Origin: Candidatus Kapaibacterium sp.
Lineage (GTDB): Bacteria > Bacteroidota > Ignavibacteria > Kapaibacteriales > Kapaibacteriaceae
DNA: 64,000 bases
Direction: 5' to 3'
Assembly (NCBI GenBank): GCA_044224925.1
Contig: JBGAJM010000001.1
Span: 113,021-177,020, forward strand
In this document: in pieces, positions 8,165 to 64,000 of the stretch
Layout of the letters: each line of letters opens with the position of its first letter
How positions within the stretch are numbered: the first letter of the stretch is position 1
Translations under genes and position numbers: made by a program
Notes under the pieces: model-generated
What the model was told of the DNA's origin: nothing
Databases searched by the model: none
Seen by the model: only the letters and a program-made list of their open reading frames with translations

Positions 8165-8171
8165 GGAGACC

Positions 8172-12335: not shown

Positions 12336-12938
12336 ATGTTAGTGCGCACACGACACGAAATCGACAATATCGGCTCGCCCGTCATAATAGTGAGAAAGAG
12401 AAACATGGATCAGTTAATTGACATAATGACCGACGTCGATCACTTACTGACTCGGCACGATTTTCAATTGCAAGAGCGATCGGACTTCCTCCTTTCGTAT
12501 GTCAAGAACAATTTGGAAATACGAATTGGTCACAATGTACGAGAGAACTCAAACATCTTTTTCTATGGTGTGCAAGGCTGCACTGCATTTGAGATCACTG
12601 ATCGACTCATTAAAGAGTGCTTTAAATCTGATGTTAGAGTTAATGATCTCACCCTGCCAAAGTTTGCTGAGAATTTGTATGTGTTGTTAAGTGGTGCAGG
12701 AAAAGTGCTCTTGGATGGTGATATAGACACTGTTCTTGGACTTTTACAATATCAAAGGCGAATAGCGACCGAGTACAGCAATGAGTTACTTCATCTTCAA
12801 TACGACCGTATTGTAGAGGAAGCATGGAGGGCAAGGGAGTATCAGAAAGTCATTGAGTATTTGTTGAAAATAGGCGAAGTCAATATGACAAGATCACAGG
12901 GGCTAAAGTTAGAAATAGCCAGACGCAGGGTCGAGTGA
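12336..12938 (+). CDS. hypothetical protein (island ORF, possible immunity-type protein)
   Basis: 200-aa ORF in the AT-rich island. An alternative start at the internal Met (MDQLIDIM) at about 12405 is possible. Confidence 0.45.
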   Translation: MLVRTRHEIDNIGSPVIIVRKRNMDQLIDIMTDVDHLLTRHDFQLQERSDFLLSYVKNNLEIRIGHNVRENSNIFFYGVQGCTAFEITDRLIKECFKSDVRVNDLTLPKFAENLYVLLSGAGKVLLDGDIDTVLGLLQYQRRIATEYSNELLHLQYDRIVEEAWRAREYQKVIEYLLKIGEVNMTRSQGLKLEIARRRVE

Positions 12939-13232
12939 AGCATCGTTTGCAAAGTGATCGTGTGCGACCGTATACGCCATCAGCCAAGATAGGACACACA
13001 AGAGAGCTCATGTTGAGTGAATTATGCCATCTCAGCATCGCATACGAATTCATCGCACTTCGTCAGAGAGTGCTCGTAAAGGCGTATGAAAGGCACGTTG
13101 CTCACGATAGGAGTCGACATCAACAAGACGGAGAATGGTCAAATGTTGTCGTAAATTCATGAGCACTACGCTTCCAGTGATCGTTGGCAGGTTCCGATCT
13201 CACTCGGTGTTTAGTCGAATATCACCACTTCT

Positions 13233-13499
13233 TTGGGTTACAGACTATCTGAACCAAAGTCTTTACTCACCGACAACTATATTGCCGGGAATTCAATGTG
13301 CTTTAAACAAATGTTGGCAATCGGACAAATGCAGTCAGATTATAGTCTGCGTAATCCGCCTGGAACGGTTTGGCACCACCCAGGCGACAATCCTGATGTG
13401 ATGCGTCTTTTGCGAGTGGAAGAGCTTGCCAACCTACATATACAACCGGTGCTTCATCCGAACGGCGCCGGTGGATACAGGAAAATCTATGTCCCCTGA
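13233..13499 (+). CDS. orphan polymorphic-toxin C-terminal module: WHH-type HNH/EndoVII-fold nuclease domain (no N-terminal delivery region)
   Basis: 88-aa ORF with a TTG start. It contains GTVWHHPGDNPDVMRLLRVEELANLHIQPVLHPNGAGG, which gives a WHH motif followed by Asn/His residues consistent with a beta-beta-alpha-Me fold. The frame opens only about 18 nt upstream (stop at 13212-13214). Its stop TGA at 13497-13499 overlaps the ATG at 13489 of the next gene. Confidence 0.5.
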   Translation: MGYRLSEPKSLLTDNYIAGNSMCFKQMLAIGQMQSDYSLRNPPGTVWHHPGDNPDVMRLLRVEELANLHIQPVLHPNGAGGYRKIYVP

Positions 13500-14112
13500 T
13501 CTCATTCGCAAGCAGTCAATTGAGACGGCATCGCGTCTCGGTTATTCAACTAACCACGCGTTGCCGCTCTTAGACGATGTTCAAAACTTGAGAACGATTG
13601 ATGAATCCGTCAACCGCCTCCTGTGCCTGAATGCAGTGGCTGCATGCGCGTACGGCTTCGATAGGCACAAGGCCGTGGAATGGCTGCGGCAGGAAGGCGT
13701 ATTTGATGAACTGGCGACATCAGAACGTCGGTTTATTGAGAACAGTGACGGTGATCCCATTCGCTTTCAAGTTCAGGTCGAAGGGTTATGGGCATTAGCG
13801 TGGGCACTTGGTATTGTGCCTCAACTTGACTTCGGGGAGTACTGTGACGACAATTTCGTCATCCTGATGCCGAATATAAGAAGCGGAGAAACAAGCGACG
13901 TCCTACGCTCGAAGATCAATCCTCGCACAACCGTCGAAGTCCTTGCGGCCTGTGATCTTGCGTATTGTCTTCATTGGGCGGCCAGAGAGGCTCTACTAAC
14001 CGGAGGCAAACTGCCTGGAGATGTGCAACTGTACGTCATCGAAGAAAGAAGGCGCATGCTAGAATGGTTAATTGGTGAAGAGGAATGGGATGAAGTAACA
14101 CTCGATACATAG
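13489..14112 (+). CDS. putative cognate immunity protein for the WHH toxin module
   Basis: ATG at 13489 overlaps the toxin stop (ATGTCCCCTGA). 207 aa. The track ORF starts earlier, at a TTG at 13426. No family assigned. Confidence 0.5.
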   Translation: MSPDLIRKQSIETASRLGYSTNHALPLLDDVQNLRTIDESVNRLLCLNAVAACAYGFDRHKAVEWLRQEGVFDELATSERRFIENSDGDPIRFQVQVEGLWALAWALGIVPQLDFGEYCDDNFVILMPNIRSGETSDVLRSKINPRTTVEVLAACDLAYCLHWAAREALLTGGKLPGDVQLYVIEERRRMLEWLIGEEEWDEVTLDT

Positions 14113-14488
14113 TCTGACGTTGCAATGTGCAGCGACGTCGAGCCGCTATTGTGTGAGGCAATGTCATTTAACTTAGACAACTGTCGATACGTCATTCAGT
14201 TAAGTGTCGCCACTTTCATTTATGCGCACAGGTAAGTCTCCAGGCCGGTCGCCCTCCATGGTAACTATGGATTGAATGAGATAGGGCAAAGGTCGATAGA
14301 TTGGCCAACACACTTCACCACGTAACACTTCGCCACGTGATGCATCGTGTAATTCTTCAATGCGCATTTCTAGATTTCATCTGCCTGGACGTTGATATGC
14401 AGTACTACGTGGTCATTGTGAGGCGGAAGATCGTTGGCATATGACGCAGAGTCGAGCTACTAGAACCCGAACAAAGAGGAAAAGACTG

Positions 14489-14995
14489 ATGAACAGAATG
14501 ATGAACAAGATGTTGTTCGTTCTCACAATTGCGGCTTTCTTCCCTCGAGAAGTAGAAACCTGCTCTTGTGTCGGTGGTGTGCCAAATATATCTAGATCGC
14601 TGAGCAACTTTGAAACAGCATTCATCGGAGTATGCCGTTCTTCAGAGGTGGATACCTTGATCACTTACATTCGAAAACCATTTCGCGATACGATCAAAAG
14701 CGTCGTGTCAACCTCACAGTTTGTCGTTAAGTATGGACTCAAGAATAGTCGGAGAATGGACAACATCACCGTCAGGTCACCGATTGAGAGTAATGCATGT
14801 GGCGTGCACTTTACGGTCGGTGGGTCGTACATTGTTTTCGGTGACGATACAAGGAGTCGCATGCGATATAGCCTGAATGACACAACCGTATTCGTTCTAG
14901 AGGTCAGCAAGTGCAGTGCGACTCAAGTCACCACGAAATCAGCGGTTGATACGTTGCGGAGGCTCACGGGAATGAAGATTGCATTTCCGAAATGA
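14489..14995 (+). CDS. hypothetical secreted protein (signal peptide MNRMMNKMLFVLTIAAFF)
   Basis: ORF 14441-14995, with a hydrophobic signal-like segment after the internal Met at 14489. Last ORF of the island before the tRNA-Lys terminator. Confidence 0.45.
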   Translation: MNRMMNKMLFVLTIAAFFPREVETCSCVGGVPNISRSLSNFETAFIGVCRSSEVDTLITYIRKPFRDTIKSVVSTSQFVVKYGLKNSRRMDNITVRSPIESNACGVHFTVGGSYIVFGDDTRSRMRYSLNDTTVFVLEVSKCSATQVTTKSAVDTLRRLTGMKIAFPK

Positions 14996-15236
14996 CATCA
15001 GATGAAGGTCTCTTCTTTTGTTGATGGCAAAGACCATCTCGGCCAACGAACCATCAGTCGAACTTTGTATTGTAGTATAGGGAGCAAACCCAAGACGAGG
15101 AAGTGATCGATAAGATCGAGCACATTGATTGGTGTGTGACATCTCGCATGTTCGTTGTTTCGCGCGTTCCTTCCAGAGTGACATGCAAACGGACTCTACG
15201 AAGTCAGGCCGTATTCGGAAGGTGCAGCGACAACGC

Positions 15237-15272
15237 AAAAAGCCGCACCAACAATGTTGATGCGGCTTTTCT
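15237..15272. terminator. bidirectional rho-independent terminator hairpin (AAAAA-GCCGCA-loop-TGCGGC-TTTT)
   Basis: A perfect 6-bp GC-rich stem flanked by an A-run upstream and a T-run downstream. It lies directly 3' of tRNA-Lys on the minus strand, and the + strand ORF 14441..14995 (last island ORF) ends about 240 nt upstream of it. Confidence 0.6.
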
Positions 15273-15275
15273 CTG

Positions 15276-15348
15276 TGACCCCGTTGGGACTCGAACCCAA
15301 GACCCTTTGATTAAAAGTCAAATGCTCTACCAGCTGAGCTACGGGATC
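15276..15348 (-). tRNA. tRNA-Lys (anticodon UUU)
   Basis: The reverse complement GATCCCGTAGCTCAGCTGGTAGAGCATTTGACTTTTAATCAAAGGGTCTTGGGTTCGAGTCCCAACGGGGTCA folds as a cloverleaf: 7-bp acceptor stem, D-loop AGCTGGTA, anticodon stem TTTGA/TCAAA with loop CTTTTAA, T-loop TTCGAGT. It closely resembles canonical bacterial tRNA-Lys. CCA is not encoded. Confidence 0.85.
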
Positions 15349-27476: not shown

Positions 27477-29078
27477 ATGGCGTCACGTCGCGACTTCATT
27501 CGAACAATAGTTCTTGGCACAGGGGCGATCTACACGGTCGCCCTTGGTGCATGTGAACGTCCGCGTCCGTCCGTCACCAAGCGCTCGACACCACCACTTC
27601 GAACCTCGGCACAACGGTTTCGTGATGCACATGCCTACCTGCGTGATCACGGTGCGGCCGCTGCCATCACGACACAACGCACGAGTGATGTGATCGTGGT
27701 CGGCGGGGGACTCTCCGGTCTTGCCGCCACACATCTGCTGCGAAGCGAAGGACGACACGTCACCCTCATCGAGAACGAACCACGCATCGGTGGTGCGGCC
27801 GTGTCCGAGCTCGTGGCCGGAGTGCCGACGTCACTTGGATCCGTGTACTTCGTGGATCGCTCTCCATTGTTGATGGATCTCATGAAGGCGGCATCGGTTG
27901 TCGACGTGGTCTGTCCCACCGATGGCTACATGCTGCATGGCACCTTGCATGCGAACATCTGGCGCGACGCCGACATCATGCGCTTTGCCACGTCCGAGCA
28001 AGACCGCACAGCGATGCGTCGGTTCCGCGACGATCTGCTGGCAATGTCCGATACCGATCTTCCTTCGTATCCGTTGCCGGCAACTCTTCCTGCGAAGTGG
28101 GCCGCCTACGATGCCATGTCCGGTGCCGACTTCCTCGCCCCCTACAACTCACCGCTCCTCTCCACCGTGCTCGATGCCTATGCGCGTTCGTCCATGGGTG
28201 CGGGCATTGACACGGTCAACGCCTACTGTCTGCTCAACTTCTATGCATCCGAGTTCGATCTCACCGAGATCGTTGAACGCTACACGTTCGATGGCGGCAT
28301 GGGTGGACTCACGCGCGGACTCGCCAACGTCATGCACGATTCCGTGCATACGAACGAGGTCGTCATCCGCGTGGAGAACACAGGCACCGGCGTTCGCGTG
28401 CTCTCCGTCGACGCGCACGGCGCTGTGATCGAGACCACGGCAGCACGCGCCATCGTGGCCACGCAGAAGTTCATGGCACCGTTCCTCATTCCTGAACTTG
28501 GCACGGCACAGCGCGATGCCATGCGTGGACTTTCCTATGCGCCATATGCGACCATTCATCTGCATTCCACGCGACCATTGGTGGATGCGTCGACCATCGA
28601 TACATGGTATCTGCCAACATCGCCACTCTTCTCCGATGTGATCAATCCGCAGGCAGTGTGGAAGGGCGGCACGGAGGGATATGTGTGTTCCATCTATGCA
28701 CCCATGCCACGCGATGCACGGGCGATGTTGCAAGACGATGCATCGTTCGCAGCACACGTGGCCGATGTGGTGCGGGCATTTCTTGCGCACGTCGACGATG
28801 CAACGGCCGAGAGCGTCACGGAGATCTATGCATGGGCGTGGGGACACAGTCTCGTGATCCCGACCCGCGGTTCACACAATGGTCCGGCACAACTGGCGTC
28901 TGCACCCGTAGGGAACATCTTCTTTGCCAACACAGATAACGACGCATCACCGGCCGTGGAGAGCGCGCTGGCAAGCGCCACGGCAGCAGCAGAGGGAACT
29001 CTGCGATCGCTCGCGCACTCTACCGGACGCGCAACAGCGTACGCTCCTAACCACTCACATTCAAGGATCTCACAATGA
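27477..29078 (+). CDS. FAD-dependent amine oxidase-like oxidoreductase with a Tat / lipoprotein-type signal
   Basis: MASRRDFIRTIVLGTGAIYTVALGAC has an RRDF Tat motif and a possible lipobox. The dinucleotide-binding motif VIVVGGGLSGLAATHLL...LIENEPRIGG is typical of flavin amine oxidases. It starts 3 bp after the DUF1501 stop. Confidence 0.7.
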   Translation: MASRRDFIRTIVLGTGAIYTVALGACERPRPSVTKRSTPPLRTSAQRFRDAHAYLRDHGAAAAITTQRTSDVIVVGGGLSGLAATHLLRSEGRHVTLIENEPRIGGAAVSELVAGVPTSLGSVYFVDRSPLLMDLMKAASVVDVVCPTDGYMLHGTLHANIWRDADIMRFATSEQDRTAMRRFRDDLLAMSDTDLPSYPLPATLPAKWAAYDAMSGADFLAPYNSPLLSTVLDAYARSSMGAGIDTVNAYCLLNFYASEFDLTEIVERYTFDGGMGGLTRGLANVMHDSVHTNEVVIRVENTGTGVRVLSVDAHGAVIETTAARAIVATQKFMAPFLIPELGTAQRDAMRGLSYAPYATIHLHSTRPLVDASTIDTWYLPTSPLFSDVINPQAVWKGGTEGYVCSIYAPMPRDARAMLQDDASFAAHVADVVRAFLAHVDDATAESVTEIYAWAWGHSLVIPTRGSHNGPAQLASAPVGNIFFANTDNDASPAVESALASATAAAEGTLRSLAHSTGRATAYAPNHSHSRISQ

Positions 29079-29782
29079 AGGTACTCGCATCTGGTCTCCT
29101 CGTTGGAGCACTCGCCATTGGCATGATGTCCTGCAAGTCTTCCACGAACCCTGCAGGCGAAGGTTCGCTCTCGATGGAAACATCGATCCCAACAGCCACC
29201 GTCCAGTCCATGACGATCAAGGGCGAACACGCTGAAGCATTGAACTGCGATAGCGTTCGTATCTCCCGTGTACGACTTCTTCTGTCGCGCATCAAGCTTC
29301 AGGCGATCAACGACGATTCGGGTACGGGTGGACGTGACGTGAAGGCCGGACCGGCCGTGATCACGTTCGAACGCGGCAAGGTCACATCGGTCTTCGCAAC
29401 CACCGTCCCTGTCGGCAAGTACGATCGCATCAAGCTGGAATCCCATCGATTCACACCACCGGAAGTGACCACATGGGCCGGTGATGCCGTCTTCGGCGAC
29501 TTCGCAACAGCTGATCGTCCAACGGTGATCATCGAAGGTACCGTCTGGAATGGCGGCGTGGCAACAGACTTCGTGCAGACGAGCGATAACACGGAGAACC
29601 TGACCATCAAGGCCGAACCGTACTTCGAGATCACGGAATCCACGGCGACAACATTGAAGATCAACTTCGATGCTGTTGAGTGGCTCAAGGTTGGCGGCAA
29701 GATCCGCGACCCGCGTGATAGCGACAACAAGAACGACATGAAGCTTCGCCTGAAGTCCTTCTTCAAGCTGATGCGCAAGTAA
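29075..29782 (+). CDS. lipoprotein of unknown function
   Basis: MKVLASGLLVGALAIGMMSCKSS has a lipobox-like motif ending in Cys. The start overlaps the preceding stop by 4 bp. Followed by a strong terminator. Confidence 0.6.
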   Translation: MKVLASGLLVGALAIGMMSCKSSTNPAGEGSLSMETSIPTATVQSMTIKGEHAEALNCDSVRISRVRLLLSRIKLQAINDDSGTGGRDVKAGPAVITFERGKVTSVFATTVPVGKYDRIKLESHRFTPPEVTTWAGDAVFGDFATADRPTVIIEGTVWNGGVATDFVQTSDNTENLTIKAEPYFEITESTATTLKINFDAVEWLKVGGKIRDPRDSDNKNDMKLRLKSFFKLMRK

Positions 29783-29796
29783 ACGGACCTTCGTCC

Positions 29797-29842
29797 AAAA
29801 AAAAACGGGTACGACCATTTGGTCGTACCCGTTTTTCGTTTC
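29797..29842. terminator. bidirectional rho-independent terminator (A9 - ACGGGTACGACC - ATTT - GGTCGTACCCGT - T5)
   Basis: Perfect 12-bp stem flanked by a poly-A run upstream and a poly-T run downstream. It lies between the + strand lipoprotein gene and the minus-strand tRNA-Leu. Confidence 0.7.
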
Positions 29843-29846
29843 GATG

Positions 29847-29930
29847 TGCGGAAGACGGGACTTGAACCCGTACGCCCTTGCGAGCGCCACCCCCTCAAGA
29901 TGGTGCGTCTGCCAATTTCGCCACTTCCGC
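29847..29930 (-). tRNA. tRNA-Leu (anticodon GAG), type II with a long variable arm
   Basis: The reverse complement GCGGAAGTGGCGAAATTGGCAGACGCACCATCTTGAGGGGGTGGCGCTCGCAAGGGCGTACGGGTTCAAGTCCCGTCTTCCGCA has a 7-bp acceptor stem, anticodon loop TTGAGGG, a 15-nt variable arm and T-arm ACGGG-TTCAAGT-CCCGT. Length is 84 nt. Confidence 0.8.
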
Positions 29931-29958
29931 ATCGAGGGATTACAAATATAGGGAAATC

Positions 29959-31059
29959 TCAGAAAACGCGACGCGTTCGAAGTGCAAGAAAGATGGGAAC
30001 GGCCGCGGAGACGACAACAGAGATGGCGATATAGGTGGTCCGGTCCACAAGATCCCGCTGCGAGTACAGTGGATGCAAGGCCGCCAACAGTGCTGTCGCC
30101 ACCAGGAAGACCACCGTGACGGCGTCCATGCGCACCCAACGCTGGAGGATCACCGCCAACAGACCGTAGAAGGCCACAAACGTCGGAGCCACCAGTCGCT
30201 CCACGTCCTTCCCCGCAAAACTGGCCACCACCACGAGGGCGACGAGGACGGCAAGGTGCATGTTCTTGCGCACAAGGTCCGGCAGACGGGATGCGGCGAC
30301 AACGGGCAGGAGCGTGAACGGGATCATGCAGTTCACGCACAACCGATACCATGCCACCGGATCCGTGAGCTTCCATGCATACACCGCATAGTTGCCGATC
30401 AGGTCCCATCCCTGATTCTCGGGCGACATCATGCTGCGCAATGCGAAGAAGGGCACCATGGCCGGTGCTGACGCGGCCAGTGCCATGCGCCATTGGCGCG
30501 ACGGCCATGCGACGATGATGGCAACAGGGACCATGAGCATGCACGTTTCCCGCGTGGCCGCACCAATGCACAACAGCACGGCATAACGCCACCATGCACC
30601 ACGTTCGATGGCGATGATCGAGGCCATGATCACCAACAACGAAAGTGCGTCGGTGAGCTGATAGGGATTGAAGAGGGAGGCGCCGACCACATGGGGTGAG
30701 GCGGCAAGGAGGCATGTGACGAACAACGATGTGCGCGCATCGATGTCGCGGCTGAGCAACCACCGACGGAACAGAAGCAGACAACAAAGCAGCGACGCAA
30801 CGGTCAGCAAACGGAACGCTTGCACCTGCGAACCAACGAGCGGTGTGAGCGTTCCTGCAAGAAGCGGTGGAAGGACGCGATAGACGAAGGGGGCAGGGAC
30901 GTGCGGATCGATGTGCGGAGCCGCCGTGGCCATGCGCTGGTAGTGCACCAGATCCAACTCGCTCTGCGATGCAAAGGCAGAGGGGTCGATCTCTCCATAC
31001 CATGCCACCATGATCCCGACCACACAGACCACGATCAGATCGTACCAGTGTGGCTTCAT
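29959..31059 (-). CDS. polytopic integral membrane protein (function unknown)
   Basis: Start at MKPHWYDLIVVCVVGIMVAWYG, the internal Met of track ORF 29959..31218. About 10 hydrophobic helices. The overlapping 725-aa track ORF 28826..31003 is rejected. Confidence 0.55.
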   Translation of the reverse strand: MKPHWYDLIVVCVVGIMVAWYGEIDPSAFASQSELDLVHYQRMATAAPHIDPHVPAPFVYRVLPPLLAGTLTPLVGSQVQAFRLLTVASLLCCLLLFRRWLLSRDIDARTSLFVTCLLAASPHVVGASLFNPYQLTDALSLLVIMASIIAIERGAWWRYAVLLCIGAATRETCMLMVPVAIIVAWPSRQWRMALAASAPAMVPFFALRSMMSPENQGWDLIGNYAVYAWKLTDPVAWYRLCVNCMIPFTLLPVVAASRLPDLVRKNMHLAVLVALVVVASFAGKDVERLVAPTFVAFYGLLAVILQRWVRMDAVTVVFLVATALLAALHPLYSQRDLVDRTTYIAISVVVSAAVPIFLALRTRRVF

Positions 31060-45482: not shown

Positions 45483-45731
45483 ATGGCAGCAGCAAAGAAG
45501 GCAGCAGCCAAGAAACCGGCAGCCAAGAAGCCGGCAAAGAAGGCAGCCAAGAAGGCAGCCAAGAAGACAGCGGCTAAGAAGCCAGCTGTAAAGAAGGCCG
45601 CGGCTAAGAAGCCAGCAGCGAAGAAGGCAGCCAAGAAGGCCGCCAAGAAGCCTGCAGCGAAGAAGGCAGCCAAGAAGGCCGCCAAGAAGCCGGCCAAGAA
45701 GGCCGCTGCAAAAAAAAAAGCAGCCAAGTAA
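45483..45731 (+). CDS. histone H1-like lysine/alanine-repeat basic protein; likely the N-terminal part of a longer gene (see A10 frameshift finding)
   Basis: 82 aa, composed entirely of (A)AKK(P)AAKK repeats. It ends 3 codons after an A10 homopolymer. Confidence 0.55.
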   Translation: MAAAKKAAAKKPAAKKPAKKAAKKAAKKTAAKKPAVKKAAAKKPAAKKAAKKAAKKPAAKKAAKKAAKKPAKKAAAKKKAAK

Positions 45732-49681: not shown

Positions 49682-51856
49682 ATGTCTTCCTTCCACGAAT
49701 TCGACGTGATCTCCGCAGCCCGCACGTGGCGCAATGATGCAACAGCGGATCCCTTGCCAACATCGACGCTCAAGGACGTCTTCGCCGACGATGTCCTCAC
49801 GGCCGATCAGCTTCGACAGCGGCTTTCCAAGCCCGTCTGGAAGTCGCTTCAGGCCACGATGGAGAAGGGAAGCACCATCGACCCGGCCATTGCCGATACC
49901 GTGGCCCTGGCCATGATGACGTGGGCACTTGAGAAAGGGGCCACGCACTACACGCACTGGTTCCAACCACTCACGGGCAGCACAGCAGAGAAGCACGACA
50001 GTTTCGTGATGCCGACATCCGATGGAAATGCGATCGCGCAGTTCCACGGCAAGGAGCTCATTCAGGGTGAGCCGGATGCATCGTCGTTCCCGAGCGGTGG
50101 ACTCCGTGCAACGTTCGAAGCGCGTGGGTACACGGCATGGGATCCAACGTCGCCCGCCTTCATCATGCGACACTCGAACGGCGCAACGCTTTGCATCCCG
50201 ACGGCCTTTGCATCGTGGACGGGAGAAGCGCTCGACCTGAAGACGCCATTGCTTCGCTCGCTCGAGTGCTTGAACACAAGCGCACTGCGAGCGATGAAGT
50301 TGTTCGGTCATGACGACGTGTCCAAGGTCTCGTCCACCGTTGGTGTGGAGCAAGAGTACTTTCTCATCGACGAAGAATTCTATTTCCGTCGGTCCGACCT
50401 GGTGATGAGCGGACGGACGTTGTTCGGTGCGAAGCCACCACGTGGACAGGAACTCGAGGACCATTACTTCGGCTCCATTCCGGACCGCGTGCTGAGCTTC
50501 ATGGCCGACGCAGAACATCAGCTCTACAAGCTTGGCATTCCGATCCGAACACGACATAACGAAGTGGCACCCGGTCAGTACGAAGTGGCACCGCTCTTCG
50601 AGGGCAGCAACATCGCTGCCGATCATCAGCAACTCATCATGCAGGTGCTGAAGAACACAGCACGCAAGTTCGGTCTGGTCTGCTTGCTCCACGAAAAGCC
50701 CTTTGCCGGTGTGAACGGAAGCGGCAAGCATGTGAACTGGTCGATGAGCACCGACACAGGATTGAACCTGCTGGAGCCGGGCGAGACGCCACATGAGAAC
50801 ATGATCTTCCTGTTCTTCTGCGCCGCGGTGATCCGCGCCGTCGATACCCATCAAGACCTTCTGCGCGCAAGCGTTGCATCGGCACCGAACGATCATCGTC
50901 TGGGTGCCAACGAAGCACCACCGGCCATCATCTCGATGTTCCTTGGCGATCAACTCACGGAGATCTACGATCGCATCGAGTCCGGCAAGGGCGGCTCCTC
51001 CAAGCGCGCCGGCTTGCTCGGCCTTGGAACACCAGTGCTGCCAACGCTTCCACGTCATGCCGGCGATCGCAACCGCACATCGCCCTTTGCCTTCACCGGC
51101 AACAAGTTCGAATTCCGCGCACCGGGTTCATCTCAGTCCGTCTCGTTCCCGATCACGGTACTCAATACCATCGTCGCCGAATCCATCGATGCGCTTTCGC
51201 GCTCCATCGAGGCACGACTCAAGAAGAAGCAAACCTTCGAGGTCGCTTTGCAAGAGACGCTTCGCGAAGTGTATGCATCGCACAAGCGCATCATCTTCAA
51301 TGGCGACGGATATGCGGCGAAGTGGCATCGCGAAGCAGAGAAGCGCGGACTCTTGAATCTGCCGACGACCCTTTCCGCCCTTCATCACCTTACGAGCGAC
51401 AAGAACACGAAGCTCTTCTCCGACTATGGCGTGCTGTCGCATCGCGAGATCGAAGCACGTGCAGAAGTGATGTACGACCAGTACTTCAAGACGGTGAACA
51501 TCGAAGGGGAGACCACGGAATGGGTGGCGCAAACGCAGATCCTGCCGGGTGTGCTGCAGTACTTGCAAGACCTCGCACAAACGTCCGTGGCCATGCATGG
51601 CGGTTCGCTCGCAACGACGCGCACCATCGAGCAGATCTCGCAAGGTGCGGATCAACTCTCGCATGCATTGGAACATCTGCGCTCGATGAATCTCGAGCTC
51701 GGCGGTGATACATTGCTGGAGAAGGCCCAACACATGCACGAGAACGTGTTGCCGGCCATGTTGGCTGTGCGCAAGGCCGCCGACCAATTGGAGCGCGTGA
51801 TGGCCTATAAGCACTGGCCGCTTCCGGGCTATCGCGAAATGCTATTCGTGAAGTAG
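49682..51856 (+). CDS. glnN: glutamine synthetase, type III
   Basis: 724 aa from [15 protein letters not shown]. The length and the GSIII-specific N-terminal domain plus catalytic core ([20 protein letters not shown]) fit type III GS. The track ORF start at 49541 runs through the heptamer repeat and is rejected. Confidence 0.85.
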
Positions 51857-54055
51857 GATCGGCACCGATCGCACACTGAACGGCGATAGCAGTTGCAACA
51901 GATACAGTCCATGTGCCAGCGATGTTCGCGGCATGTGGACTGTATGCGTTTCAGCAGCATCCGACGTGTGATCGAACGCTGCGCTTGCAACGAGTCCGCC
52001 ATCGATCGATCGAAGGTCGATCCGATGCATGCCGCGCTCTTGCGTGAGCACGTCAACATCGATCACATCGGCATCGTCCACATGCAATCGTTCGATGCGC
52101 AGTGGTTGCAGGAAGCGCACCATCCGCCCTTCGAGAAAACACGTCGTGACCGTGCACGATCCATCCTGCGTGCGCACCGGATGAGAGCCGGCAGGGGAGA
52201 TCGTGATCGACTCGAACGTCAGCGGCGTTGACGATGGCACGTCGAGCAGCGTGTTGACGATCAGGTCCGTCACATGCGATGAACGCGCCGGATGCACATC
52301 GAGCACGCGGAACTGCACACGCCGCACGGAATCGTCCATGCTTTCACTGATGTACAGTCCGTTGCTCACACCGCGCGAGATCAACAACGTGCGCTTGAAG
52401 CGGATCATCCCCTCAACGTCGATCGCCTCGCCGCCCTCCATGGTCCCTTCGACCGTCACGGAGATCGGCAAGGCCACGGTCGTACCCGCTGCGACGGTGG
52501 TATCAGGCAAGGAGAAGAGCAAGGTGGCAGGGGGCGGGGCATCGATGGCCGATGCAATGATGGTCGACGTGAGATCTGTTGCACAGTCGGACAGCAGTTC
52601 GCACTGCATGCGGAGTGTGGTGGTGTCGACAACCGTGGGAGACCATTCGAGCGTGAGCGTCACGGTGCGTCCGGGATCGACGAGGCGTGGAAGTGTTGGA
52701 GCGATCACGCGTATCGGTGGCACCGATGGCGTGAAGGAGATGTTCATGATGCTGAAGGGCGTGGTGCCTGTGTTCTGCACGTCGACGTTGATGCGGGCCG
52801 TGCTGCCCACCGTCGTCGGACCGAGGACCACCGGATCTGCAATGGTGGCCGTTGGTGTTGCACCGGCCAACACTTCGAAGAAGGCCGTGTCCGAACAGTT
52901 CTCAAGTGTTGTGGCGATCACGCGATAGATACCGGCGGCGTTCACATCGATCGATGGTGTGCGATCTCCGGTGTTCCATGCATAGATGGCAATACCCGGT
53001 GTGGCGGAGAGGGTGAAGCGGTCGCCCGGACAGACGATGCGTGGACCCGTGATGTCGACGGATGGCAGGGGATGAACGAAGACCTCAAGTGTGTCCGACG
53101 TTCCGGTGCACCCGCTGGAGTCAACAAGGTCCACCCAATACATGCCGGATCGCGAAACGTGGATCGTCGACGTGGTGTCACCCGAGTTCCATCGATACGA
53201 CAGGTAGCCATTGCCAACACGAAGCTCCGTGGAGTCACCTTCGCAGATGTTCCGTCGGTTGAAGAGCAACTCCGGTCGCAGTCGCGCACCTACGCGCACG
53301 GCATACTGTGCCACCGATGCACATACCTGTGCATCCGGTCGCGGCAGTGACGTGGTGAGCTCCACCTGTCCGCTCCCATTCCACCGCACACGAATGGCCC
53401 GCGTGTTCTGTCCTTGCAGGATCGTCCCGCCCACCACATTCCACGCATAGGAGGCGCCGGGCACGTTGTTCGCCACATAGGTGGCCTCGGAGCCTCTGCA
53501 TGCAGCGTTGGGTCCGTTGATGGCCGACGTGGGCACGGGTAGGAACTCGACCACCAGACTGTCGCTGCTTCCCACACATCCGTTGCTATCCATCACCGTC
53601 ACTCGGAACACGCCGTTCTTCGTGATGGAGATCGTTCGCGTTGTATCGCCGGTGTTCCATCGATACCACACGAACAGGTCGGGCGCTTGCAGGGCGGCCA
53701 CATCACCTTCGCACAGATACTGCCGTCCGTTCCCGATGAACGGATGCGGCTTGGGCACGTCGCGGATCACGATACGCCCCGAATCAAGCGAACCGTTCCG
53801 GTTGATGGCATAGACCACATAGGTGCCACCCACATTCACGTAGATCGTCTGCCCTCGTTCACCGGTGCTCCACACGTAGTTACTGTAGCCGGAATCCGCC
53901 GTGATCGCTTGTGCACTCGACCCCTCGCAGATATGCTGCGGACCGGACAGACCGATCCCCGCCGCCTTGCCGCCGTAGGGGACAAGACAGAACAAAAGCA
54001 TGATCATGACGGCGGCGTGCGACAGCAACGTTCTCCTTCCTATATTCGGCATCAA
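51842..54055 (-). CDS. secreted multi-Ig/SprB-like repeat protein with a T9SS C-terminal domain
   Basis: Repeated units of about 75-85 aa with conserved Cys/Gly/Trp ([31 protein letters not shown]...[29 protein letters not shown]). C-terminal [23 protein letters not shown]. The alternative start at Met17 (54007) gives a better signal peptide. Confidence 0.65.
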
Positions 54056-54083
54056 GTTACCGAGATTTCACCGAGGGCATTCC

Positions 54084-57000
54084 ATGCGTCAAGGATACCT
54101 GTTCCTGATCCTCCTGCTGGCAACGTTCCTGCCCCTGCACGCCCATCGCGGATGCATGCTCAAGCCCTTGCCCCTGCACGACCGACTTCGCAGTGCCCAT
54201 GCCATTGTAGAGGGTGTGGTGGGCACGTCGACCACCGAGATCATCAACGATCGCATTCACACACGATGGCACATCGATGTGGTGCGTGCATGGGACCTGC
54301 CCGTTGCACGTCCATCGATCGACGTCGTCATCGAAGGTGGGACCTATCAGCAACAACGCCTTGTCGTGATCCCCAATGCCAGTGTGCACAGCGGTGAACA
54401 TGTGGTGTTGATGCTCGATCCGTTCGATGCACAAACGAACACGTATGTGATCTCGAGCGGACCGCAAGGCGTGATGACCGATCGCGAAGGATCGTTCGTC
54501 GATGCCATCGGCACCCGCGTTGCCGACATGGATCTCTTCGCACAGGTCTCCGCTGTACGCGGACGTATGCCGAGCTTCCCCGGTGGTGGCGTGATGTTCT
54601 CCGAACCCATCATGCGTTCATCCAAGCAGCACGAATCAACGCAGGCGCTTGCCGTTACCAGCTTGAGCCCGACAACCTTCAATGCGGGCACGTTGACCAG
54701 CCTCACCATCAAGGGCACGGGCTTCGGAGTGAAGGGTGCGAACAGCACGGTCAGATTCGTCAGCGCTGATGAGGGTGGCGAGGTGTTCGGAACATTGCCG
54801 CCGTTCCATATTCAATCATGGAACGACACGATCATCGTTGTCCACGTTCCGTGTACCGCCGATGACAATCCGACAGCCGGGACCGGAAAGGTTCGCGTGA
54901 TCACGGATGGCAATGAGATCCTCACAACAACACAGACCATCAACGTCAACTGGGCACAGTTCACGAATCAGAACACAGCGGGTGCGCAGGTGGATCAATG
55001 GTCACCGGTGGAGTTGGTGAACGATAACGGACAGAACGGATACACCTTCACTCTGAATGCCGGACTCGCTGCACAGAATGCGGCCAACCTTGCCGTGCGT
55101 CGTGCACTGTCGACGTGGCGATGCAAGACGGGCGCCAACCTTGCCGTTGCAGCCGGCACCACGAACGTTGCCTGTACGAATGGTGCCGACGGTATCAATG
55201 TGATCACGTTCGACGGTGCAGCCTGTCAGTTGCCCAACGGCGTTCTTGGCGTGTGTTACTTCTACTATGCAGCATGCACACAAGGCGGTACACAGTATTG
55301 GCGCGTCGATGATATCGACCTGATCATGGACGGCGGAACGAACTGGCAGTATGGGCCGGCCGCTCCGGTGGCCCCGCAAGTGGACTTTGAAACGGTCGTC
55401 CTCCATGAGATCGGACACGGACTTGGTCTTGGTCATGTGCGCGACGCCGCGGCCGTGATGTACTGGGCACTTGCTGCCGGCGATCAACGACGCACGCCCT
55501 TGGCCTCGAGCGATAGTACCGGTGGTCGGTCCATCGTGAACAGATCGACCGTGGCCCATGCATGCGGTCCTACTGCCATGAACGCCGTTGGCGCGGGCGT
55601 ATGCAACCTGGCTCCTCCCGCTGCCTCGTTCACGACCAACGTTGTGCGCGGCTGTTCGCCACTGACGGTGACGTTCACGAATACGAGCACCAACGAACCG
55701 ACCAACACGAACTGGGATGTCAACAACGATGGCGTTGTGGACTACACGTCGACGAATTGTACGCACACCTATACAACGTCCGGCACCTACACCGTACGGA
55801 TGGCCGTATCGAATGCCTTTGGCACCGACGAGATCATCAAAACGAATTTGATCGTTGCGCTGAGCGTACCACTCGTGAATGCGGGACCGGACGATACCGT
55901 CTGTCTTGGATCTTCAGCGACACTGGGTGCAACGCCCGTTGCGACGGGGAACACACCATTCGTGTATCGTTGGCGACCAGGCAACGTGTTGAACGATTCA
56001 ACGGTTGCCAATCCTATAGCCACCATCACCACGACGACCACATTCTCCGTTACCGTCACCGATGTGAACGGATGCGTCCGTGCAGACACGATGGTGCTTA
56101 CGGTGATCCCTCGTCCGATCGTGAACACCGGTGCCGATACGTCGCTCTGTCAAGGTGATGCAAAGACACTCAATGCCGTTGTGACGAGCGGTCTCGCTCC
56201 GTACCAATTCCAGTGGACGCCGGCTGCAGGACTGAACGACCCAACGATCCAGAAGCCTGTTGCGACGCCATCAACAACAACGTCCTATGTGCTGACGGTG
56301 ACCGATGTTCGCGGCTGCGTGCAGGCGGACACGATGAAGATCACGGTGCATCCGTTGCCAGTGGTGAATGCGGGACCGGACACGGTGATCATCTGCGCCG
56401 GTGGTTCGATCCAACTCCAGCCCACGATCGTGTCAACAGCACTGCCGCTTTCATATCAATGGGAACCATCGGCAGGGTTGTCTGCTGTGAACACGCCGAA
56501 TCCGATCGCATCGCCGATATCATCGCAGGTGTATACGCTCACCGTGACCGACAACAACGGTTGTTCGAAGAGCGACCAACTGTTGATCCGCGTGATCGAG
56601 CTTCCGAAGCCCGTGATCACGACGCCCACCACGGGCACGCTTTGCGAAGGACAGACCGTGCGCCTTGATGCGGGTGCCGGATTCGCAACCTATCTATGGT
56701 CCACCGGTGCCACGACGCGCACCATCGATGTGACGACATCCGGATCGTACACCGTCCGCGTGACGAATTCCTTCGACTGTGAAGGGCAGTCCGTTCCCTA
56801 TGTCTTGACGTTCAACAGAACACCAGCACCGCAGGTCACGGGCCCATCGCAGACATGTGTGAATGCAACGGCTGTGTATTCCGTGACGGCCGTGAGTGGC
56901 GACGCGTATGCATGGACGGTCACGAACGGCACCATTCGGAATGGAGCGGGCACGCCGACGATCTCTGTGCAATGGGGAAGTACCGGCACAGGTACCGTTG

Positions 57001-57767: not shown

Positions 57768-60088
57768 TCAGCTTGACGTTTTCTTTGCGGCCTTCTTCGC
57801 TGCGGGTTTCTTCGCGGCAGTTTTCTTTGCGGCCTTCTTCGCTGCCGGCTTCTTCGCGGCGGTCTTCTTTGCAGCAGCTTTCTTGGCGGCAGCGGGTGAC
57901 ACCTTTGGTGCCTGTTGCGCTGCAAGGGCAAGACAGTCTTCCAACGTCAGCGACGTTGGTTCAGTGCCCTTCGGAATGCGCACGTTCTGCTTGCCAACGA
58001 CCACAAAGGCTCCCCATCTGCCTTTCAGCACCTTCACGGATGGATCTTCAGGGAAGGTCTTGATCGTGCGGTCGATGATGGACTGTCGCTTCAATTGGAT
58101 CAGTTCAATGCCGCGTGCTGCTTCGATGGTATGGATGTCGTCGGTCTTGGGGATCGAATAGAACGATCCTGCATGTTCGATGTAGGGACCGAACCTTCCC
58201 ACCTTCACCTCCATCACACTGCCTTCGAACTCGCCAATGGGACGTGGGAATTTGAAGAGCTCCATGGCCTGTTCGAGCGTGATGGTCGCGATCGACAGCG
58301 TGCCGGGAAGTCCCTTCTGACGTTTGTCTTCGTCGTCCTGATCGCCGATCTGCACAAGCGGACCAAAGCGTCCGAGACGCACCGATACGCGACGTCCCGA
58401 CACGGGGTCCACACCAAGCTCGCGCTCACCGCTTTGACGTTCGGCCGTGGCGCTTGTGAGTTTGAGGCGTTCTTCGAACGGACCGTAGAAGTCACGGATC
58501 ATGTCGTTCCACTTCACATGACCTTGCGCGATCTCGTCGAACTGCTTCTCGACACTGGCCGTGAAGTTGTAGTCGAGGATGCTGTCGAAATGCTTCGTCA
58601 AGAAATCGGTGACCACCATACCGATGTCGGTAGGGAAGAGCTTCGACTTCTCGGCACCCGTGTTCTCCGTTTCGACCACGCGCGAGATCTTGTCGTTCAC
58701 AAGTGTGAACATCCGCACTTGACGTGTCCATCCGTCGCGGTCCTCCTTGACCACGTACTTGCGTGCCTGGATGGTGGAGATCGTTGGCGCATACGTGGAA
58801 GGACGGCCGATGCCAAGCTCTTCGAGCTTCTTCACCAGCGATGCTTCCGTGTAGCGGGATGGCGGTCGTGCATAGCGTTCTTGCGCCTGCATCTGCACCA
58901 ATTGAAGCAATTCGCCAACGCTCAGCGGTGGCAGCATCTTCGAACTGTCCTCGTCCTGTTCTTCATCGGTCGACTCAAGGTAGACCTTCAAGAATCCGTC
59001 GAACACCAACACTTCGCCCGTTGCCGTGAGCGTATCGGGCAGTGTGCTCACACTGATCGTTGCGATCGTGCGCTCAAGCTTCGCATCGGACATCTGTGAT
59101 GCCAACGAACGCTTGTAGATCAAGTCGTAGAGCCGCTTCTCGGGGTCGCCCCCGGGCACGGTCCGCTTCGACAGATCCGTTGGTCGAATGGCCTCGTGTG
59201 CTTCTTGTGCACTGGCAACCTTCGTGGTGTAGTTGCGCGGATTCGAATAGCCATCGCCGTACGTTGTGAGGATCTCTGTGCGTGCGGCATCGATAGCGAA
59301 CTCCGAAAGGTTCACAGAGTCGGTACGCATGTACGTGATATGTCCGCCCTCATACAGATCCTGCGCCAGCTTCATCGTTCGTGCCAGCGAATAGCCCAGC
59401 TTCCTGCTGGCCTCTTGTTGCAGGGTAGAGGTCGTGAAGGGCGGCGAGGGACTCTTCTTGGCGGGCTTGACCTCGAGGGCCGTGATGGCAAAGGATGCAC
59501 CCTTGCAGCGCTCGAGGAAGTCGCGTGCTTCTTCTTCGGTGTCGAACCGACGTGGCAGTTCGGCCACGAGCGACTTGCCGTTCACATCGAAGGTCGCCGT
59601 GACCTTGAACTGACTCGTCGACGTGAAGTTCTGAATGTCGCGCTCACGCTCGACCACGAGACGCACGGCCACGCTCTGCACACGTCCGGCCGAAAGGTTC
59701 TTCTGCACCTTGCGCCACAACACGGGCGAGAGACCATAGCCGACGAGACGGTCCAGCACACGACGTGCCTGCTGCGCATCGACCAAGTGCTGGTCGATCT
59801 GCCGCGGGTGGTCGATAGCGTTGAGAATGGCCTTCTTCGTGATCTCGTGAAACACGATCCGACGTGTCTTCTCGGCCGGAAGGTCGAGAGCCTCTGCGAG
59901 GTGCCAGGCGATCTGTCTTCAGAAACCTCGTAGACCGGTTCGAAATTGCCCTTGGTGTCGATCGCCTGATCGTTCCCCGGCAGGTCTCGAATGTGGCCCA
60001 TGCAGGAAGTGACCACGTATTGGTCGTCCAGGAACTTCTGGATGGTCTTGGCCTTCGAGGGTGACTCTACGATCACGAGATTCTTCAT
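57768..60088 (-). pseudogene. topA: DNA topoisomerase I, disrupted (frame change with about 27-33 codons missing, including the Toprim DxDxE motif); lysine/alanine-rich C-terminal tail
   Basis: Frame A from ATG 60088 gives [37 protein letters not shown]...[10 protein letters not shown] (58 aa), then non-homologous sequence. Frame B opens after a TGA at 59919-59921 and reads [31 protein letters not shown]..., continuing as TopA to 57768. The conserved ...K.VV..L....K.AD.VYLATDxDREGEA... segment between them is absent. The C-terminus is AAKKAAAKKTAAKKPAAKK... Confidence 0.6.
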
Positions 60089-60564
60089 GCTTCGTCGCCT
60101 TTATTGTGTTCGCAGGTGACCGGATCGGGGCACACAGCGAAGATCTGCAGTGAGTGATTGACGGCCGTCATACCGAGGCCCTGGGCCACGCGTTCACCGA
60201 TATCGTCGATGCCGCGCTCGCGGAACTCGACGATGCGCCCGCATTCAACGCAGATCAGGTGGTCGTGGTCCGGCATTCTGCTCGACAGCTCGTAGTGCGC
60301 GCTTTCGCCCTGGAAGCGGTGCTTCATCAGGATCGTGCACTTCGTGAGCAGATCGAGCGTGGAATAGACGGTCGCCCGGGAGATCCGATCTCCCTTGGCA
60401 TTCATGGTCACATAGAGCTCATCGGCCGAGAAATGGCGGTCCATTTCGGCGATCCGATCGAGCACTTTTCCCCGTTCCGGAGTGTTCCGGTATTGCTTCC
60501 GTCGCAGGAATTCTGCGAACTGATGTTTGAGCGTTTCGATGTCGGTTTGTGGTGCCATGAACAT
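60085..60564 (-). CDS. Fur-family metalloregulator
   Basis: 159 aa with a DNA-binding winged helix and metal-binding [15 protein letters not shown]...C motifs. Its stop overlaps the topA ATG (ATGA). Confidence 0.8.
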
Positions 60565-60635
60565 CTAATATACGATAGCCCTCCACTTTCGTTAATTTTG
60601 GGGCTGTTTTTCTCCACGCTAACCGGAAATAGCCC

Positions 60636-62531
60636 ATGCGCAAATGGCGGACCGAAGATTCGATGGAATTGTATAACGTCTCAGGGTGGGGCATCGGATA
60701 CTTCGGCATCAACTCGAAAGGCAACGTCGTTGCCGCGCCTCGGAAGGCAAAGGGCTCCCAGATCGACCTCAAGGAACTCGTGGACGAGCTGGTGCTGCGC
60801 GACGTGAGCGCCCCGGTGCTGCTCCGGTTCCCCGACATCCTGGACGACCGGATCGAGAAGATCTCCGGTTGCTTCACGAAGGCGGCTGAGGAATACGACT
60901 ATCACGGCAAGTACTACAGCGTCTATCCGATCAAGGTGAACCAGCAACGTCCGGTGGTGGAAGAGCTGGTCCGCCACGGCAAGAAGTTCAACATCGGACT
61001 GGAAGCAGGCTCGAAGCCCGAACTCCATGCCGTGCTGGCCATCATGGACAATTCGGAAGCGCTGATCGTTTGCAACGGCTACAAGGACGAAGAGTTCATC
61101 GAACTGGCCTTGCTGGCGCAGAAGATGGGCAAGCGCGTCTACATCGTGGCCGAGAAGCTGAACGAGCTCAAGCTGATCAAGACCGTCGCCGAACGCGTCA
61201 AGGTGCGCCCGAACATCGGCATTCGCATCAAGCTCTCGGCCTCGGGCTCGGGCAAATGGGAAGAGTCCGGCGGCGATCTCAGCAAGTTCGGTCTGAATGC
61301 CTCCGAATTGCTGGAGGCCGTGGACTATGCTCGCGACAACGATCTGTTGGACTGTGTGAAACTGATCCACTTCCACCTCGGGTCGCAGATCACGAACATT
61401 CGGAAGATCAAGGCCGGCTTGCGCGAAGTATCGCAGTTCTATGTGCAGCTCATGAACATGGGCTGTGCTGTGGAATTCGTCGACATTGGCGGCGGTCTTG
61501 GCGTGGATTACGACGGCTCCCGTTCCTCGGTGGCCTCGAGCATCAACTACTCCATCCAGGAATATGCCAACGATGCCATCTCGACGATGGCGGACGCGGC
61601 ACAGAAGCACAACCTTCCGCATCCGAATGTGATCACGGAATCCGGTCGTGCCCTCACGGCCCACCACTCAGTGCTCGTCTTCAACGTGTTGGAGACCACG
61701 AGCGTGCCACTGTGGGGTCGGAAGGACAAGATCTCGAAGAAGGACCACGAGATCGTGCAGGAGATGCACAACCTGTTGAACGGCCTGAACACACGCAACA
61801 TGCTGGAGTCGTGGCACGATGCGCAGCAACTGCGCGAAGAAGCGCTTGACCGATTCTCGCTGGGCTTGCTCGATCTACGTTCCCGTGCACAAACGGAGAA
61901 GTTGTACTGGTCCATCGCCCAGCAAGTGTGCGATGTGAGTGCAGATCTCAAGGCCATGCCCGAAGAGTTCCGTGCGCTGCCGAAGATGCTCGCCGACAAA
62001 TACTTCTGCAACTTCTCGCTGTTCCAGTCACTTCCGGACTCATGGGCCATCGATCAGCTCTTTCCGATCATGCCCATCCATCGGTTGAACACCAAGCCCA
62101 CGCGTGCCGCAACACTGCAGGACATCACGTGCGATTCCGATGGGAAGATCGATCACTTCATCGGCGTGCGCGACCTTGCCCACTCGCTGCCCTTGCATGA
62201 CCTTCGCGAAGACGAGCCCTACTACCTTGCCGTCTTCCTTGTGGGTGCCTATCAGGAGATCCTTGGCGATCTGCACAATCTGTTCGGCGATACCAATGCC
62301 GTGCACGTTGTGTGCACCGACAAGGGCTATGAGATCGAACAGGTGATCGATGGTGAATCGGTGGCCGATGTGTTGGACTATGTGCAGTTCAACGCCAAGA
62401 AGCTCGTGCGCACCATGGAGGCATGGGTGAGTGCGTCGGTGAAGGAAAAGCGCATCACCATTCACGAAGGCAAGGAATTCCTGGCCATCTATCGAAGCGG
62501 ACTCTACGGCTACACGTATCTGGAGGAGTGA
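60636..62531 (+). CDS. speA: biosynthetic arginine decarboxylase
   Basis: 631 aa. The SpeA-specific N-terminus (YNVSGWGIGYFGINSKGNV), the PLP-binding Lys region (YPIKVNQQ) and the C-terminal domain match. Confidence 0.9.
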   Translation: MRKWRTEDSMELYNVSGWGIGYFGINSKGNVVAAPRKAKGSQIDLKELVDELVLRDVSAPVLLRFPDILDDRIEKISGCFTKAAEEYDYHGKYYSVYPIKVNQQRPVVEELVRHGKKFNIGLEAGSKPELHAVLAIMDNSEALIVCNGYKDEEFIELALLAQKMGKRVYIVAEKLNELKLIKTVAERVKVRPNIGIRIKLSASGSGKWEESGGDLSKFGLNASELLEAVDYARDNDLLDCVKLIHFHLGSQITNIRKIKAGLREVSQFYVQLMNMGCAVEFVDIGGGLGVDYDGSRSSVASSINYSIQEYANDAISTMADAAQKHNLPHPNVITESGRALTAHHSVLVFNVLETTSVPLWGRKDKISKKDHEIVQEMHNLLNGLNTRNMLESWHDAQQLREEALDRFSLGLLDLRSRAQTEKLYWSIAQQVCDVSADLKAMPEEFRALPKMLADKYFCNFSLFQSLPDSWAIDQLFPIMPIHRLNTKPTRAATLQDITCDSDGKIDHFIGVRDLAHSLPLHDLREDEPYYLAVFLVGAYQEILGDLHNLFGDTNAVHVVCTDKGYEIEQVIDGESVADVLDYVQFNAKKLVRTMEAWVSASVKEKRITIHEGKEFLAIYRSGLYGYTYLEE

Positions 62532-62547
62532 TCGCGAAAGCGATCAC
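62528..62547. terminator. perfect palindrome GTGATCGC-GAAA-GCGATCAC between the convergent speA and rqcH-like genes (possible bidirectional terminator; no U-tract)
   Basis: 8-bp stem with a GNRA tetraloop. It overlaps the speA stop codon. No T-run follows on either strand. Confidence 0.3.
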
Positions 62548-62557
62548 AAACTCGCGA

Positions 62558-64000
62558 TTACTCAGCAGAGCCCGCGGGTAGCGACGGCGAGACCATGATC
62601 ACGCGTTCCCGCTCGAGCGTGACGGCGCCAACGTTCGCACCCTTGGGCTTGCGAACGTACTTGCGTAGCGTGTAGACCACGGGCGTGTACGATGCATTGC
62701 GTGCATTGGAGTAGTACGCGGCGATCGCTGCCGCCTGCTCGAGGATCTTCTTGGGCGGATGCTCCGTGTCGGGTCCACGAAGAATGGCATGCGAGCCGCT
62801 CACACCGCGCGCATGGAACCAGAGGTCGTTCTGCTTCGCAAAGCGCATCGTGAGTTCGTCGTTGTTGGCGGCACTCTTCCCAACGTAGACGGTATGGTCA
62901 TCGTCGAGCACGAAGACGCGATACTTCTTGACAACGTCGTCGGCACTGACGGCGTTCTTCTTCTTGGGATCGGGTGCAGTGGTCATGGTGTCGATCTCAT
63001 CCAAAGTTGCTGATCGCAAACGCTCCAACTGTCGCTCAAGCTGTTCGCATTGTTTCTGCAGTGCCGGCAAACGAATGGCACGCACACGTGCCGCCTCGTC
63101 CGATGCACGGGCCTTCGCAAAATAGGCGTGGGCGTTCTCGATCACGGTCTTCCTCGCATCGAGGGCAATGGTGAGCATGGTGCCATCGTGGTCCTCGACG
63201 TCGATGCTCGTCCGTCCGGTATCGCGACTCACCGGCAGTGAAAGGAGCAGAGAGCCTTTGTGCCGATACAGCGTGGACCGATCTGCTGTGGCCGCATCGC
63301 TCGTCATGCCGCGAATGCTTCGTTGTGCTCGATGGAGCTGACGTTCCACATCGTCGATGGCCTTCTTGCGTTGTTGCAGGATGCGCTCGATCGATCGACG
63401 TCGACCGATCACCGTGCGTAACATCATGAAGATGTTGTCGGAGGTGCGCACCACGTCGTAGCCTTGCAATGGAAGCAACGAGAAGACCACGTCGGTAGAG
63501 CGTTGCAGCATGTAGTACGTCGACGTTGCACGGGCTTCATCACGTACTTTCTCGCCTTGCTCCCATGCCGCCTTGCGAAGACCTTCCTCCATGGCGCTGA
63601 GCGGCGTGGCGGTGTCGATGTTCAATCGCTCGCAGACCTCATGTGCATAGTAGGGACCGAGCAACAACTCGCACGAGGCAAGTGCACGCTCGATGGTGGT
63701 GCTCGTTGGCAGTTCGACGAATGGCGTCGGACGATACGGCGTGATGGTGAACGGTGTGCCGATCAGCTCGCGCTCACGCAGGACATCGGTGATCGTTCCG
63801 TTCTCCACGGCCACGATGTTGCCACGTCCGGCACTGAAGAAGAGCACATGCAATTGATGCGTTGTGAACCACAGCGTGATGATGCGATCGTCGGGATGCT
63901 TCGTGACCATGGCGAGGCTCTGACCGCAGAGAGCGGGGAACACGTCGAGCGTGTTCTTGCGCGCGCGATTGGCCGCATCGTGCATCGTAAGACAGCCCAT
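62558..64000 (-). CDS. RqcH / fibronectin-binding protein A-like (NFACT family) protein; 3' portion, extends beyond the window end
   Basis: C-terminal DUF814/NFACT-R motif (HARGVSGSHAILRGP...) and a coiled-coil middle region. The ORF runs to the last base of the window. Confidence 0.7.
   Translation of the reverse strand: MGCLTMHDAANRARKNTLDVFPALCGQSLAMVTKHPDDRIITLWFTTHQLHVLFFSAGRGNIVAVENGTITDVLRERELIGTPFTITPYRPTPFVELPTSTTIERALASCELLLGPYYAHEVCERLNIDTATPLSAMEEGLRKAAWEQGEKVRDEARATSTYYMLQRSTDVVFSLLPLQGYDVVRTSDNIFMMLRTVIGRRRSIERILQQRKKAIDDVERQLHRAQRSIRGMTSDAATADRSTLYRHKGSLLLSLPVSRDTGRTSIDVEDHDGTMLTIALDARKTVIENAHAYFAKARASDEAARVRAIRLPALQKQCEQLERQLERLRSATLDEIDTMTTAPDPKKKNAVSADDVVKKYRVFVLDDDHTVYVGKSAANNDELTMRFAKQNDLWFHARGVSGSHAILRGPDTEHPPKKILEQAAAIAAYYSNARNASYTPVVYTLRKYVRKPKGANVGAVTLERERVIMVSPSLPAGSAE

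Follow-up and report, generated by a model that had tools for sequence, protein, structure and literature searches.

A topA copy without its Toprim DxDxE motif in an assembled Candidatus Kapaibacterium genome, and an intact allele in the same strain

Introduction

Does a disrupted topA in an assembled genome mean that the organism lives without TopA, or does it record something about the sampled population or about the assembly? The question is raised by the topA locus of Candidatus Kapaibacterium sp., which lies in a 64-kb stretch of DNA (the window). topA is normally essential, and compensated null mutants are known in Escherichia coli and Bacillus subtilis (PMC10969213). An original prediction, made by reading the letters of the window, held that this copy of topA is broken by a change of frame together with the loss of an estimated 27-33 codons, among them the Toprim DxDxE motif. 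We have followed up this prediction by comparing the locus with its closest relatives, with database proteins and with contigs from independent assemblies.

Results

Translation from the ATG at 60088 on the minus strand gives a TopA N-terminus of 58 codons, 100% identical to the intact alleles on contigs L083 and L086, and then 110 out-of-frame residues rich in Arg, Ser and Pro (RSPGTSQRL...) up to a stop at 59582-59584. A third frame, which opens at a TGA at 59919-59921, continues with 714 TopA codons down to the stop at 57768-57770 (Table 1). One continuous frame from Toprim to the cleavage domain is absent from this copy, its 5' and 3' parts lying in different frames on the two sides of the junction at 59913/59914. 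In the C-terminal part, Pfam detected Topoisom_bac (PF01131, E = 9e-115) and three Toprim_C_rpt repeats but no Toprim. The catalytic Tyr282 (TAC, 59331-59333, in GHITYMRTDS) is retained, and this part of the protein shares 98.5% identity over 663 aa with the database protein P0001. The original prediction had described a canonical TopA N-terminus followed by junk, a second frame carrying the rest of TopA and an otherwise intact gene with a KA-rich tail, and its description of the locus holds in each of these respects.

Table 1 Position of the topA features and of the adjoining fur gene in the window
Feature	Coordinates	Strand	Evidence
fur (159 aa), TGA stop overlapping the topA ATG as ATGA	60085..60564	-	Pfam FUR, E = 1.6e-31
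topA 5' fragment, M1 to D58 (codons 1-58), with E8 of VIVESP as the first Toprim glutamate	59915..60088	-	translation
168-aa ORF encoded by the broken topA from its own ATG (58 TopA plus 110 out-of-frame residues)	59582..60088	-	ORF translation
Deletion junction, GAAGACA/GATCGCC, 88 nt missing between the two bases	59913..59914	-	blastn and MAFFT against L081, L083, L086 and L087
topA 3' part, codons I89 to S802 and stop, in a frame other than that of the 5' fragment	57768..59912	-	translation, Pfam
695-aa ORF from an internal GTG	57768..59855	-	form of the gene in the public protein set (P0122)
Lys/Ala-rich C-terminal tail (AAAKKAAAKKTAAKKPAAKK...KKTSS)	57771..57893	-	translation

The Lys/Ala-rich tails of several TopA homologues match the HC2-type Pfam family PF07382. 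Elsewhere in the window, a stand-alone ORF of 82 aa (45483-45731, plus strand) consists almost entirely of AAKK/PAKK repeats (MAAAKKAAAKKPAAKK...), with TRF periods of 12, 15 and 39 nt and the only repeated 31-mers in the window. Because its composition is the same as that of the TopA C-terminal tail, this ORF may encode a histone H1/HC2-like DNA-binding protein.

The extent of the loss was determined by DNA alignment with four intact relatives (L081, L083, L086 and L087), against which exactly 88 nt are absent from the window after base 59914. By blastn, the window and L081 align in two colinear blocks that abut at 59914/59913 in the window and lie 88 nt apart in L081. Where the window runs directly from GAAGACA into GATCGCC, all four relatives read GAAGACA-AGAAGAAACTCGTCTCC...GGGAGAGGC-GATCGCC. 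The 88 nt amount to 29 codons plus 1 nt, so that K59 to E87 and two bases of the A88 codon are lost and the frame is shifted. This agrees with the estimate of 27-33 codons, and the alignment with TopA orthologues that had been proposed along with it gave the exact 88-nt gap against every relative aligned.

The lost peptide, KKKLVSELKKQAKSADMVWLASDEDREGE(A), aligns with ...KKSTVTELKGLLKDVDELYLATDGDREGEA (...LATDGDREGEA) of the mycobacterial TopA in PDB entry 6pcm and therefore contains the Toprim DxDxE residues D81, D83 and E85. A complete Toprim domain is accordingly wanting in the window copy, which keeps E8 and has D81-x-D83-x-E85 within the missing 88 nt. The Pfam Toprim model has 96 positions, of which the N-terminal fragment of the window matches 2-37 only, compared with 2-96 in the intact P0001. 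The proposed breakage of topA by a frame change and loss of the Toprim DxDxE motif was thus confirmed by alignment, by Pfam and by comparison with 6pcm. The acidic residues of Toprim bind Mg2+ and are required for cleavage and religation (PMC2241903; PMC10969213). Judged from the alignment, the deletion takes out the predicted Toprim strands and loops that hold the DxD(xE) Mg2+-binding residues. Because these residues are lost and the frame is shifted, the products of the locus are predicted to be catalytically dead, and neither the 168-aa product nor any restart product, such as that of the 695-aa ORF, would be able to cleave and religate DNA. Programmed frameshifting or translational bypass was rejected as a way of restoring the enzyme, since the 88 nt are absent and a protein made by any shift would lack DxD all the same.

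The intact gene was found in every close relative in which it was looked for. The closest database protein, P0001 (98% identity, 802 aa), is annotated as a type I DNA topoisomerase. It is encoded on L081 (GCA_018266735.1), where the gene order is that of the window: arginine decarboxylase, fur, topA and M10 peptidase. Among the matches listed, the eight closest proteins (788-802 aa, 90-98% identity to the query) all contain Toprim, Topoisom_bac and Toprim_C_rpt, and the lost segment is present in all six sequences that were read, namely five of these eight and the more distant P0009. It is equally present in P0121, a JGI protein that differs from the window TopA by four residues. Looking up the window Fur protein retrieved four Logan contigs, of which three (L083, L086 and L087) cross the site, all of them intact. 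In L086, from run SRR28480387, the flanking 1,012 nt on the left and 161 nt on the right (1,173 nt) are 100% identical to the window and the 88 nt are present; the same strain therefore has an intact topA. The loss of topA is not fixed in this lineage, the intact segment occurring in the same strain in the sister run.

For the deleted junction, in turn, no other contig or protein record was found. The truncated 695-aa ORF (P0122) was seen on a single contig, an NCBI contig of 950,151 nt from which the window evidently derives. An exact look-up of the 168-aa product gave no record elsewhere, and protein searches with this product and with the 120 residues that follow the junction returned unrelated short TopA fragments only, with no second instance of the lesion. 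As far as can be seen from these records, the lesion appears to be specific to the assembly of the window. One exact look-up of the 695-aa topA product gave no match, although that ORF is P0122 in the public protein set. Exact look-ups of the 714-aa topA product, of the 1,224-aa and 817-aa peptidase products and of the 724-aa glutamine synthetase were also without match, and a contig of run SRR28480386 to the right of the breakpoint was not recovered. An exact search for the junction among JGI metagenome contigs gave no match and is uninformative, since the intact-allele control was unmatched as well. A TopA protein scan of genome contigs returned distant Bacteroidota only (52-62% identity), the patterns being too common, and a literature search by the four SRA run numbers found no paper.

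The overlap of the fur stop with the topA ATG (ATGA), from which the original prediction had derived co-transcription of the two genes, is present at 60085-60088. The overlap is conserved in the close relatives, for example in L081 (fur 5531-6004, topA 6001-8409). Only in these relatives (L081-L087) is topA directly preceded by fur, which is absent from the 4-kb flanks of 80 more distant Bacteroidota topA loci. On account of the ATGA overlap, we suggest that fur and topA may be translationally coupled or co-transcribed in this lineage.

Other loci in the window were noted in passing. A block of short ORFs at 9883-15348 has a low third-position GC (0.43-0.52 versus ~0.7 in its neighbours) and has a tRNA-Lys(ttt) gene (15275-15348) at its end. 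Among its ORFs are one for an Imm11 immunity-protein homologue (11173-11733) and one for a DUF4272 protein (13426-14112), and the block may be an island inserted beside the tRNA or a polymorphic-toxin immunity gene cluster. A tRNA-Leu(gag) on the minus strand (29846-29930) lies inside a mechanically listed 725-aa ORF (28826-31003, GC3 0.51), which is for this reason probably not a gene.

The age of the lesion was assessed from the rest of the gene and its surroundings. Over the remaining 714 codons, the window and L081 are colinear with zero gaps, with dS 0.40, dN 0.009 and dN/dS 0.023, values which indicate that strong purifying selection acted on topA essentially up to now. No other frame-breaking indel was found in the 12 kb shared with L081, where the other indels are compensated 1-nt alignment pairs, a 3-nt indel and a gap cluster at ~62557-62559 between two predicted ORFs. 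Taken together, the low dN/dS, the lack of a second lesion and the clean 12 kb indicate that the lesion is recent and that the assembly is not generally noisy. An old, decaying pseudogene was rejected on the same dN/dS, on the single lesion and on the 100% identity of the flanks to an intact allele.

We then considered the junction itself. The two deletion edges share no bases and have neither a direct repeat nor microhomology. Direct repeats of 7-16 nt occur nearby, none of them at the breakpoints, and no repeated 31-mer is found at the site; the 64-kb window contains no N, and the missing 88 nt are not present anywhere in it. Assembly collapse, which the original prediction had offered as a possible cause, is not borne out by a junction of this kind. 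Repeat collapse was rejected because there is no repeat and there are no shared bases at the edges, slippage because the edges are without repeats, site-specific excision because flanking repeats are missing, and a move of the segment within the window because the 88 nt are absent from its 64 kb. A 10-nt inverted repeat (9/10 complementary) lies 11 nt outside each edge (L086 992-1001 and 1112-1121; window ~59925-59934 and 59893-59902). It is probably due to chance, because the region folds no better than its shuffles (z = -0.6), and hairpin-mediated deletion was rejected on this weak repeat and fold. The right edge adjoins a GATC site (GACA/GATC, 59913-59916). A Hi-C or restriction-ligation junction was rejected, GATC standing at the right edge only and the left edge having no matching site. 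A deletion without homology is what the joining of broken ends, or a rare accident during replication, would leave, and an in-vitro chimera could also produce it.

Contigs of run SRR28480386, in which the strain of the window is present, provide a further observation at the breakpoint. One of them (L082/L084, 17,273 nt) matches the window at 100% identity over 59914-64000 (4,087 nt), and another (L088, 4,252 nt) does so over 51082-55333. L082 (SRR28480386_384152 in Logan) terminates at 59914, on the base that immediately precedes the deletion. Contigs drawn from a k-mer graph stop wherever the following base is ambiguous. After 59914 the next base is A in the intact and G in the deleted form, and a branch of the graph is therefore expected exactly at the end of L082. 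Given contigs of 4.2 and 17.3 kb, chance would place a contig end on that exact base roughly once in several thousand cases. The first variable site among the five intact relatives compared lies about ten bases beyond the breakpoint base, and a strain SNP at that base itself, which would be a first-position change in the conserved K59 codon, is unlikely. From the exact contig end, and not from the reads, we infer that both alleles would be present in the reads of SRR28480386. An intact allele in an identical background in SRR28480387, together with a contig end at the breakpoint in SRR28480386, is what was found with regard to a polymorphism within the population.

Discussion

Our favoured reading, which we hold to be probable though well short of certain, is that the window carries a recent deletion that makes a null allele of topA, that this allele co-exists with an intact one in the sampled population, and that the assembler chose it. 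A single, very recent 88-bp deletion would have created the null allele, presumably in vivo and, without homology between its ends, through end joining or a replication accident. It would have removed the DxD(xE) residues and shifted the frame, leaving no active product. The deleted allele would not have become fixed but would occur beside the strain's own intact allele, and it is the deleted path that the assembler would have happened to take for the consensus. For a gene that is normally essential, a null allele at a coverage that an assembler can select is unexpected unless the loss is compensated.

It is quite unlikely that the deletion is purely an artefact of assembly or consensus, in which case no molecule with the deletion would exist and contig ends would have been butt-joined, or the 88 nt dropped, by the assembler, scaffolder or polisher. 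Such an error would agree with a deletion known from one assembly only, with the intact state of each independent contig that crosses the site and with the identity of the gene that was hit, which is normally essential (PMC10969213) and is otherwise under strong purifying selection; yet the junction offers no repeat, microhomology or N run to account for a collapse or for the closing of a gap, and frame-breaking indels are otherwise absent from the 12 kb that were compared. The contig end in the independent assembly can be taken in two ways. It may mark a site that is difficult to assemble, but a contig end or gap caused by low coverage would not be expected at the same nucleotide in two assemblers with different k, and a branch at that nucleotide needs either the deleted junction in the reads or the unlikely first-position variant of K59.

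Distinctly improbable is a deletion that has become fixed in a viable sub-lineage without TopA, compensated by Topo III, Topo IV or, as in E. coli topA null strains, less gyrase activity, with the intact copies coming from sister cells of the same strain. Any such lineage would have to be extremely young, since its flanks match those of the intact allele at 100% identity and the rest of the gene is undecayed, and the broken contig in SRR28480386 points to an intact allele in that same sample; nor does the 64-kb window contain a second type IA topoisomerase. What speaks for fixation is that the deleted path was chosen for the 950-kb contig, as would fit a majority allele, and that compensated topA nulls have been documented in E. 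coli and B. subtilis (PMC10969213). We regard it as rather doubtful, too, that a sub-population with a true topA null allele occurs at high frequency in one sample, with the loss of TopA tolerated in nature by means of another topoisomerase or an altered gyrase. The names given to its TopA relatives would place this uncultured bacterium in a Bacteroidota/Kapabacteria-like lineage.

An in-vitro library artefact (an amplification chimera, as from whole-genome amplification) or a large duplication with one intact and one deleted copy is very improbable: both would put two alleles into one read set and make the graph branch at the breakpoint, and a chimera is compatible with the homology-free junction, but standard shotgun libraries do not yield one specific deletion at assembly-level coverage, and a duplicated segment would need to be longer than the 17-kb contig, which is identical to the window and shows no further branch; the 64-kb window contains neither the missing 88 nt nor a second topA.

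Returning to the recent deletion allele that we favour, the locus can be compared with known systems. The intact relatives share with mycobacterial TopA (PDB 6pcm, 5d5h) the order of Toprim, Topoisom_bac (with the Tyr in ITYMRTDS), three PF13368 repeats and a Lys-rich tail. By this domain order, topA here is the gene of an ordinary TopA with a basic tail and Toprim_C_rpt repeats, like those of actinobacteria. The window copy, in contrast, lacks residues 59-87 (including D81, D83 and E85), is split over two frames and could not be active. As in the documented topA nulls (PMC10969213), the lesion would abolish all catalytic function, and viability would need compensation; unlike them, this allele comes from an uncultured population and has an intact counterpart in the same strain background. 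The locus also resembles the strain-level indels and consensus errors of MAGs, in that a conserved and otherwise clean gene is interrupted by a single disruptive indel, at a base where an independent assembly also stops, and in that other samples have the intact sequence, although the indel here is not at a homopolymer or repeat, where such changes usually occur. The lesion is an ordinary loss-of-function deletion and does not represent a new kind of system.

The locus is a very recent variant or an assembly artefact, and not the mark of a bacterium that has lost topA. Annotators of this genome would list topA as absent or pseudogenised, and might conclude that the set of topoisomerases is unusual. 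The evidence points to an intact topA in the strain, and absence of the gene should not be scored for the organism without read-level confirmation. Unless the deleted allele proves to be in the majority, it would amount to an assembly blemish or to ordinary variation at the strain level. If it does, the population would offer a rare natural example of tolerated TopA loss.
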